The position numbers and the translations under genes are program-made. A stretch of DNA of 64,000 nucleotides from Macrostomum hystrix (Eukaryota; Animalia; Platyhelminthes): assembly GCA_950097015.1 (NCBI GenBank), contig CATNEN010000039.1, positions 19,096,001-19,160,000 of the forward strand, written 5' to 3'. Below, in pieces: positions 49,601 through 50,733 of this stretch. Each line of letters begins with the position of its first letter. Positions within the stretch are counted from its first letter, which is position 1. The notes beneath the pieces were generated by a model. That model was not told where the DNA came from and searched no databases. It saw only the letters and a program-made list of their open reading frames with translations.

Positions 49601-50733
49601 CACTGGCAGGTAGTTTCCTTCGCACTCTTTGCGAACTCAGCCACAAACAAGTTGTACGACTTTATCGCCTTATCAAACTGGCTTGGTGCGCAGACTGAAA
49701 TCGGATCAATATGATGATCTTTTTGCCACACAGCCTTAAACGCTTGCACCAAGTGTCTTGCGCCATTGTCGAAATCTTCGCTGGCGATCAGATCCCACAC
49801 AGGGACGCACTCTACTCCGTATTTAATCACATGCCACTGGCGGTTGCTTCTCGCCAGTCCACCTCGCCAAAGTAGCTCTGAGGTTTCCTCGATGGGACCT
49901 CCAAGTTTTCTTACCTTCTTAAACACTTTGTTCATTTGGTGGTTGAGGTCTCTCTGAAGCTGTGAACCCTCAGTATTGATGCCGCTCCATTCACCAGAGC
50001 CAATAACGACATCTCCCATACCGACTCCCACAATGGCTTTAAGTGCACTGCATACCAGAGACTTGCCTGTGTCCAGGCTCTCACTTTCAGTACAATTGTA
50101 TGAGGCTTCAGACGCCAAGATCCCACCAAAGTGGACTGTTCCACTAGTTGCATGACTTCCAAAGCTGTCCATGAAAGCCCTGATGGACGTCTCGGTACCT
50201 TCCAGATCGAGACATCGAAGCTGGCTCTCAATTTTTCGAAGCTCTTCTTTTGCCTCCTTCGAAAGCTTGTTAGGCTGCAGATTGCAGGCAGCAGTGGGCA
50301 CAAAAACTATTTGCGATCTCGCGTAGAATTTCGATTTGGTATGAAGTTCGCTTCGACGAGCGTCCTCGTCAACCTGAACGTAGTCGCCTCCAGCGAATGC
50401 GTTTACGCGGAATATACCAGCTTCCAGCTTGGCGGACATACTTCTTCCTGTGGACATAAGCGAGTTCATGAATCTGTCAAATTGAGAGGCCTCGTAGAAT
50501 TCATATTCCTCAACCTCATCACCAATATCAGGCCCTGTGAGCTGGACACTGTCGGGGACACCGACCAGCAGGCGATCGCATCGAGTCCAGCCTCCTTTGC
50601 CGTCTAGCTTTCTGCCGCGCAGCAGGCTGCTGGCAGATGCGTGCTCGACTAGCTGCGAGTCAGTGAGACGAATACTTGGTGTATCGCCGCCTTCTTTGTC
50701 ATGCGCTGCCTCCGCGACATAGTTTATTGACAT
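43696..50733 (-). CDS. GVIN1: Very large inducible GTPase (GVIN1/VLIG/URGCP family) with an N-terminal MACPF-like domain, at least 2345 aa in one giant exon (acceptor at 50781/50780; the N-terminus may extend upstream)
   Basis: G1 GIQSSGKSTLLN, G2 GRCTRG, G3 DTEG and FLHQN; VLIG hallmarks FGLEHILREVAQVYE, LEIIDGD and LWDAVLREDFVFSFQN; C-terminal CPEQCPFCDEPC..H..H.C..HRP; N-terminal FGSHATSGTVHFGG. Confidence 0.93.
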   Translation of the reverse strand: MSINYVAEAAHDKEGGDTPSIRLTDSQLVEHASASSLLRGRKLDGKGGWTRCDRLLVGVPDSVQLTGPDIGDEVEEYEFYEASQFDRFMNSLMSTGRSMSAKLEAGIFRVNAFAGGDYVQVDEDARRSELHTKSKFYARSQIVFVPTAACNLQPNKLSKEAKEELRKIESQLRCLDLEGTETSIRAFMDSFGSHATSGTVHFGGILASEASYNCTESESLDTGKSLVCSALKAIVGVGMGDVVIGSGEWSGINTEGSQLQRDLNHQMNKVFKKVRKLGGPIEETSELLWRGGLARSNRQWHVIKYGVECVPVWDLIASEDFDNGARHLVQAFKAVWQKDHHIDPISVCAPSQFDKAIKSYNLFVAEFAKSAKETTCQWSKQLKELFETINTIEKLTAVSRRGTVWAENSDLEIVLDEFLRHSPELLQTPESPSIASYLQQLVDLSATCFPKKEQILSVLKPRAAELPYKLRSSGQTLTSPEQLVELVRNRYLPDMSAFIAVKASEDHEKVMRAMQPELVNEINKLLRTLTDAKQNYEKFLVVCVVISHGFQLSEGQFDHLLNYEAVQKLADAIESEINSMAVFTASNEVEFVQANLLFVYKKYIQVHVNDFDIRKQILNVCEYDWLLNIRTAIAEFIKSGCVDWTGIDSVTRTILQQYNKNGQKIPVDLGPLARCCEAQKTGSAKTFEATSLYEVLNYLDLSAIKALGLQDFWPGKLSMSTVMSLSSESDSDVKDSFGLRMLKLLAMTNYNCRESTIIRFKSHEQLDSRDEEDDWSDDYNPQADTRADAANTSLHFCDVLMVCFLSANPMLRQTISEKLFDCKLAVPILYSVGGKKLLFTWTLRSLVLKFVPQNQSQPGSSVELILNSGDFPVVSVIRLGTSSFSKSKIANTFLNKKHDTFTVSGKSSLKKLHSDGSIELAWMLPAAADKSGHQSAICLLNLRGDAGAEELSEQLDFLASVSTYLVVMLPDEDCSHSDAFSQVLVRLYSSKSRLGLLVSSEQIPKCLRDLEQTFSSRDERKNLDLIRLKKPATAMEDVEIANTLLQKMLKTGFLERKLASLAKFCDFGRQKSNWILEDSVDHVRESIDAARRLVEKVRTPNTSENLAVVKQTNLPLHGNPCLEISKRKKQRFRLNRSLVGEEKTRWVGEIDAEISQLRQEQASLLQSQVNEKDNFILNFLTSLQSFSFDPIEAEVFLRHLAIELNSLSLVNLAAIRRSFHCLWGDISREKNATLDQKRQFEKADVELQGASFGLEHILREVAQVYEAIMCNVALKEKYQNLAQSLARVAAQLLLQGHALEIIDGDITFVADLWIQAVLKQVESIIGAKHLLVVSILGIQSSGKSTLLNTMFGLQFPASAGRCTRGAFMQLVKNQPEKSGVNVDYVVVIDTEGLRAPELGGSTKEHDNEVATMVIGLADVALINIMGEGLSEISDVLQIAVHALIRMKMAFKSVILEKSCIFLHQNVAAVDASDKLRTAGNVLLQELNRAVAAAAREEGANDVGQFTDIISFDPNTDVCFWPNLWEGTPPNAPVNPDYSRMAQKTRIAVLKQLKRFENSKLSFSNLAIRICDLWDAVLREDFVFSFQNTLELNAYREVEREFLKICFTLESSVTDWVKSEGVLKVRQCNEVNLLETILNVTQKLLSSNVEEAEAVALQKLEIFLAGHELKHISNKWEQDKKISLSYCARRILETCTNLLRGITEEQRSALLNRTKMADYQNRILTETRKLAESQNRTQLTPDQKKLLFEDMWNQFINEVIGVETVPWNAAAEAERAVREAFSDLPSSTLDENVRCFSGAKKDAKFFNFKLQGSFQESFVLDSHFTYTKSIELFRKAKSSSDCAQVLVLVADSALSKIDSLMKERENSKERHIVSKTDFQNFIILVRREITEYNEKGLNSGEVPKTPKIKTNPGFELALAIHACKYALAIFEAWHHQYEEKHGIAAKVRDFKDLASKTFSNRLQRETEEVIAADAFAATIKVAINRQVKEQKSLMVLKSLYGDFDLTKLHLITLIMESLADNGNFEDFIDYIEDSKAFALKWLTRYVQAKIFSKTPRQTIHYNELIEELTRPQVEAVKESVHEASASLLDELSRSPAANTLFQEWIKIFCNGSKLGWHTENFSHIDANSISDVKNFEELLLRRLETMKSELLTEHSISGATEIEWVGESPAESLLQRLWGCPEQCPFCDEPCSNSSEGHQSTHWNHVCLQHRPAGVTGTRVNQYRNELALTSCNFDVQTMANFNCGAVNYRCRQSGKCQSGGPDSKSLKFIFHEYEDFKTVFPDWQISPDASDSSSPYWMWFMNQFSENLQRHYGCCKLDLPVSWRHISKEQAKESLSKYSPSSRPT

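Follow-up and report, generated by a model that had tools for sequence, protein, structure and literature searches.

Among the interferon-inducible GTPases, the GVIN/VLIG family is the least understood, and the GTPase coats known to date harm bacteria only together with separate co-factors. GBP1, a large dynamin-like interferon-inducible GTPase of the same superfamily, assembles into a coatomer; statements in a 2025 preprint describe a similar coat that is formed by the GTPase body of human GVIN1 on O-antigen-bearing bacteria, term GVIN/VLIG function enigmatic until then and, in the discussion, characterise the GBP1 coat alone as neither bactericidal nor bacteriostatic. Here we describe a GVIN1/VLIG-type gene of the flatworm Macrostomum hystrix (GenBank assembly GCA_950097015.1, contig CATNEN010000039.1, positions 19,096,001 to 19,160,000 of the forward strand; these 64,000 nucleotides (nt) are referred to as the window). 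The first ~340 residues of its 2,345-amino-acid (aa) product are predicted, from a structural model, to fold like perforin, a design common to fish, frog and mammal relatives; GBP1, unlike the flatworm protein, has no pore-forming domain.

The flatworm protein combines a URGCP domain with a VLIG-type GTPase domain in which the G1 and G3 motifs are intact (Table 1); the GVIN1 preprint names two large-GTPase-like domains, the first of which probably corresponds to the URGCP domain, and GBP, RHD3 and Dynamin_N Pfam matches are also found on the protein. It is encoded by a very large open reading frame (ORF) in a single coding exon that is colinear with vertebrate GVIN1: BLAST against ten vertebrate GVIN1-like proteins yields single colinear alignments of 2,365–2,465 columns. 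Named vertebrate GVIN1 matches have E-values of 4e-29 to 5e-15, and the resemblance that an earlier note on this DNA had pointed to is thus real. The closest relative is a protein of Macrostomum lignano (52% over 1,834 columns). Relative to GVIN1/VLIG-1 (human Q7Z2Y8, mouse Q80SU7, rat A0A0G2JTA4), the flatworm copy lacks the ~150-aa segment that precedes the MACPF domain in most relatives; the flatworm lineage is not known to have interferon.

The AlphaFold2 model of the N-terminal domain (pLDDT 85.3, pTM 0.80) contains a bent, four-stranded antiparallel sheet (β1 aa 73–79, β2 134–152, β3 194–215, β4 270–277) with helical clusters inserted between β1 and β2 and between β3 and β4; the tip of the first membrane-insertion (TMH) region, TMH1, has low confidence. 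Foldseek and VIA-align return lytic MACPF proteins as the best structural matches, in line with the fold that had been proposed from the letters alone, and Astrotactin-2 is also among the matches. The top ESM Atlas matches are MACPF (0.97), and a family profile compared with the Protein Data Bank (PDB) reveals homology to complement C8-alpha, in which TMH1 aligns to the matching C8-alpha segment and the C8-alpha signature aligns to the flatworm F-G-S-H-x8-GG with a one-residue gap. The gp41 constructs among these profile matches align to a stretch that precedes the domain, and they were discounted as matches to a coiled coil or linker. A PDB search with the single sequence yields pleurotolysin B (PlyB) alone, at E 1.1; Pfam assigns aa 1–340 to no family, and PF01823 is not matched by this protein but, at E ≤ 0.01, by 23 of 59 aligned relatives, with a best E-value of 9.8e-11. 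Identity to PlyB, perforin-2/MPEG1 and C8-alpha amounts to 11–18%. The flatworm domain differs from these three by the extra signature residue, by the lack of a signal peptide and of any recognisable targeting domain and by its fusion to a GTPase body of ~2,000 aa; its role in pore formation is putative. The domain is present where the earlier note had placed it (residues ~35–320), though its extent is slightly larger.

Family statistics refer to 143 aligned domains with at least 270 matched residues, out of 168 proteins. The MACPF signature occurs as the variant F-G-S-H-x8-GG, with eight residues between H and GG as opposed to the seven of the canonical motif, (Y/W)G(T/S)H(F/Y)x6GG; the one extra residue that had been pointed out is therefore genuine, and the same spacer is found in 135 of the 143 domains (seven have no match, one has seven residues). 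When the protein is shuffled 20,000 times, a loose form of the signature arises in 6 cases. G192, H194, G203 and G204 are conserved in 97–100% of rows, and the GG pair at the end of β4 (278–279), W289, L293, W300 and W313 in 94–99% each; all near-invariant family residues are kept in the flatworm copy. Every string quoted in the earlier note lies in the ORF, at aa 187–204 (50122–50175), 98–118 (50380–50442), 230–251 (49981–50046), 276–279 and 311–316; the pattern it drew as KLGG...W...L...W..I...PVWDLI has the right residues (W289, L293, W300, I303, W313) at spacings that are approximate.

Across the family, the median length is 56 aa for TMH1 and 57 aa for TMH2. Each region holds two runs, on either side of a Gly/aromatic tip, in which hydrophobic residues alternate with small polar ones; in the flatworm protein, TMH2 includes the most hydrophobic 19-mer (aa 226–244). 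A significant β-periodic moment is seen in 66/142, 53/139, 15/143 and 42/137 members for the four strands, compared with 0–1 members in each of five helical controls and 33/143 for the core strand β3. Strand phase agrees between the vertebrate clade (41 rows) and the other 102 rows for all four strands, yet the same is true of 8 of 11 control segments, the differences being mostly small; in a test with fixed phases the family figure is 124/141, which is partly circular. A trimer prediction that did not use the alignment scored 0.08 against a mark of 0.32 and is evidence in neither direction. Judged from sequence, this anatomy is that of a pore-former.

A HMMER scan identified 259 representatives at E ≤ 0.001, of which the best 150 were taken. 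Among the 168 proteins with a GVIN-type MACPF domain, the chain also includes URGCP or the GTPase in 89; 47 of the other 79 have at least 60 residues after the domain, and since 26 of these 47 match the GVIN body, many are fragments. Named members comprise flatworm, oyster, ribbon worm, krill, sea urchin, fish, amphibians, reptiles, birds, mammals and one oomycete. In 66 two-domain proteins, tree distances of MACPF and GTPase are correlated with r = 0.88 (reached by 0 of 1,000 permutations), and the GTPase tree reproduces 31 of the 38 supported splits of the MACPF tree. As far as trees can tell, this agreement shows an old, stable fusion, as distinct from functional coupling. When proteins are selected by their GTPase (best 120 of 3,407 matches), the MACPF domain is present in 31 and absent from 89, and it occurs in 23 of the 48 selected proteins of at least 2,200 aa; the domain hence marks a subfamily, and its presence in all VLIGs is ruled out. 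PF26771, an unnamed Pfam 38 family, is not this domain: 3 of its 16 carriers lack the domain, and 18 of 31 MACPF-bearing matches lack PF26771. A search by shared words for relatives of 192–613 aa gave none at E ≤ 0.01 among 2,679 candidates, which reflects a sensitivity limit because the full HMMER scan found many relatives. P0088 is probably a repeat-driven false match.

The family includes a number of further architectures. Many invertebrate VLIGs of ~1,800 aa, among them P0224 and others of prawn and mussel, are without the MACPF domain; in length they agree with the functional human ORF. A fully supported clade combines a GVIN-type MACPF domain with no detected GTPase (P0044, P0035, P0062, P0073, P0047, P0133, P0079, P0061 and P0091); five of six members of the P0079 cluster are 589 aa long, so a stand-alone MACPF form looks real, and one relative has NHL repeats. 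Death, DED or CARD domains are found on other relatives (P0249, P0299, P0205), the sea urchin protein P0249 bearing Death, MACPF, URGCP and GTPase domains on one chain. Possible non-animal relatives are P0158, an 840-aa protein of the oomycete Thraustotheca clavata with the domain, and P0164, a 2,480-aa protein with MACPF, a divergent GTPase and a MYND finger.

Three of the best 120 GTPase matches (P0241, P0245 and P0259, of which P0259 belongs to the krill Meganyctiphanes norvegica) start with a stonustoxin-type MACPF/CDC module instead, comprising MACPF_SNTX, SNTX helical, thioredoxin-like and fn3 domains, with a C-terminal vWA domain in two of them. They share the plan of an N-terminal MACPF/CDC-superfamily module on a URGCP/GTPase chassis; however, the module belongs to a different MACPF lineage and is not matched by the GVIN-MACPF profile, and it is therefore probably a separate capture of a pore-former. 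An ESM Atlas search with P0006 gave leads below 0.9 only. The ESM Atlas cluster at rank 1 (score 0.79; 131 members, commonest phylum Rotifera) has an MMR_HSR1 GTPase in 87% and MACPF_SNTX in 64% and is possibly, as a lead only, a third fusion of this kind.

The absence of a signal peptide, and with it the cytosolic location claimed by the earlier note, is supported by the protein and by the contigs. The best 9-residue hydropathy within aa 1–45 is 0.57, and a hydrophobic N-terminus occurs in 0 of 54 full-length homologues. The 356-nt intron in the 5′ untranslated region (UTR) is absent from contigs of all four runs, which belong to one study and have no recorded library type, and one contig of 7,319 nt covers the upstream exon and the entire ORF with 0 differences; we infer that the contigs joined across the intron are transcripts. 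In the spliced leader, an in-frame stop precedes the ATG at 50733, and all ATGs of the leader are out of frame; thus, the ATG at 50733 is the start, and a signal peptide supplied by the upstream exon is ruled out. Three out-of-frame ATGs lie in the spliced leader (51137–51394, minus strand), one of them opening 50 codons, and could limit translation of the gene.

Table 1. Features of the very large GTPase gene and its product (positions in the window)
Feature	Position	Strand	Basis or remark
GVIN1/VLIG-type very large GTPase ORF	43696..50733	-	uninterrupted, single coding exon, 2,345 aa
Non-coding first exon	51137..51354 (extends at least to 51354)	-	contigs of 4/4 runs join exon to 50779/50780
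5′ UTR intron, 356 nt	50781..51136	-	GT..AG ends, CTAAT branch-point-like motif and pyrimidine tract
MACPF domain (predicted fold), aa ~20-345	49699..50676	-	AlphaFold2 model, Foldseek, VIA-align, profile against PDB, ESM Atlas
TMH1 region, aa 80-135 (56 aa); predicted membrane hairpin aa 95-119	50329..50496	-	between β1 and β2
MACPF signature F-G-S-H-x8-G-G, aa 191-204	50122..50163	-	
TMH2 region, aa 213-269 (57 aa); predicted membrane hairpin aa 229-252	49927..50097	-	between β3 and β4
β4 end with conserved GG (278-279) and Trp-rich segment W289/L293/W300/W313	49786..49908	-	alignment conservation
Middle region, aa 346-794	48352..49698	-	no Pfam match; acidic, probably flexible linker at end
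URGCP domain (PF25496), aa 795-1064	47542..48351	-	Pfam E 9e-46
URGCP-like GTPase domain (PF25683), aa 1151-1538	46120..47283	-	Pfam E 7e-105
G1 motif, aa 1337-1344	46702-46725	-	intact
G3 motif DTEG, aa 1389-1392	46558-46569	-	intact

The window as a whole is eukaryotic; minisatellites and transposon remnants abound in it, and it holds a single long gene; no paralogue of the very large GTPase gene is found within it. One dispersed repeat flanks the gene at 43402–43560 and 53883–54233, in both orientations, and its copies bound how far the 3′ end of the transcript can be read. Further away are a non-LTR retrotransposon (55016–58865, plus strand) with gag-like ORFs, endonuclease and RNase H domains and a broken pol frame, and a DDE_3 (Tc1/mariner-type) transposase ORF (34368–35156, within 34013–35528) that is flanked by two arrays of ~105-nt units, which are mutually inverted copies. 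Many long minisatellite arrays with units of 16–32 nt, up to 264 copies and a strong strand skew occupy 4059–42703.

Other MACPF proteins depend on dedicated targeting modules: the C2 domain of perforin, the aegerolysin partner of PlyB and C5b-7 for the membrane attack complex. In the flatworm protein the GTPase body could stand in for such a module, and we see about an even chance that it concentrates tethered MACPF domains on a target, upon which these oligomerise and insert. The GTPase body would likely coat a microbe, or a microbe-holding vacuole, in the cytosol and crowd the MACPF domains on the coated membrane; the crowded domains would likely join into rings or arcs, and the two hairpins of each would insert as a β-barrel pore. 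Oligomerisation, insertion, target membrane and GTP gating are what we infer; it is likely that the protein coats intracellular microbes, and it may punch holes in them.

Several observations weigh against this mechanism. In the flatworm copy, no single TMH strand is significant (p 0.21–0.52) and one Arg sits on the lipid face of the hairpins, while the pooled TMH test, with phases fixed on the other members, gives p = 0.034. Human GVIN1 as functionally studied is a shorter ORF of 1,808 aa that by our mapping is devoid of the MACPF domain, and the known function of the GTPase body is consequently independent of it. This human result is double-edged: it supplies the targeting step, yet leaves the MACPF domain dispensable for the one known output.

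That dispensability, together with the 89 relatives lacking the domain, the weakly amphipathic flatworm hairpins and the match to Astrotactin-2, would suit a non-lytic MACPF that serves as a scaffold for oligomerisation or membrane docking and aids coat assembly or partner recruitment; a non-lytic role has been proposed for astrotactins and BRINPs. We consider such a scaffold doubtful, given that the best structural matches are lytic proteins, that full-length, small-residue-rich alternating hairpins with aromatic/Gly tips are retained family-wide and that a second type of pore-former is fused to the same GTPase body. Gasdermins and NLRs have in common an N-terminal pore-former with a large C-terminal regulator, and this layout, the Death, DED or CARD domains on relatives and the clade of GTPase-less MACPF proteins such as P0079 are consistent with a pore directed at the host: the GTPase body would be a sensor and auto-inhibitor, and activation or cleavage would let the MACPF domain perforate the plasma or an organelle membrane of the infected cell in a gasdermin-like cell death. 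This is unlikely, as the sole localisation data, those reported in the GVIN1 preprint, place the GTPase body on the bacterial surface. Decay or a changed function of the flatworm copy alone, in a family whose domain is otherwise a pore-former, is suggested by lipid-face charges in this lineage and by hairpins that are 29–32% identical to those of the nearest M. lignano relative as against 74% in the core, but is very improbable in view of the intact ORF, the spliced contigs, the near-invariant residues that are all kept, the significant pooled hairpin pattern and the fact that hairpins are the variable part throughout the family.

It is important to point out that the MACPF fold match is already contained as rows in one published supplementary table (PMC8986115), and it seems never to have been put to the test. 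With the family known and the match tabulated, ours is not a first sighting. The earlier note had suspected an under-recognised family trait; under-recognition holds, in that the literature searched contains no paper discussing a MACPF domain on GVIN/VLIG GTPases, but the trait belongs to a subfamily and not to the whole family. Nor does that literature treat a cytosolic MACPF domain on a coat-forming GTPase as a system.

A bolder reading, to which we give somewhat less than an even chance, is that GVIN/VLIG proteins at full length act as an intracellular membrane attack complex that targets itself. Animals from flatworms and sea urchins to mice would share this ancient defence, and a coat of the dynamin-like GTPase would both deliver a perforin-type pore to intracellular microbes and gate it; the chassis would have captured pore-formers at least two times, and humans would have kept the coat and split off the pore. 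A GTPase coat that includes its own MACPF domain would provide a single-protein route from recognition to membrane damage, with a MACPF working in the cytosol, and a difference between human and mouse in cell-autonomous immunity would be predicted. It also suggests that results obtained with the 1,808-aa human ORF may reflect only half of the ancestral machine.
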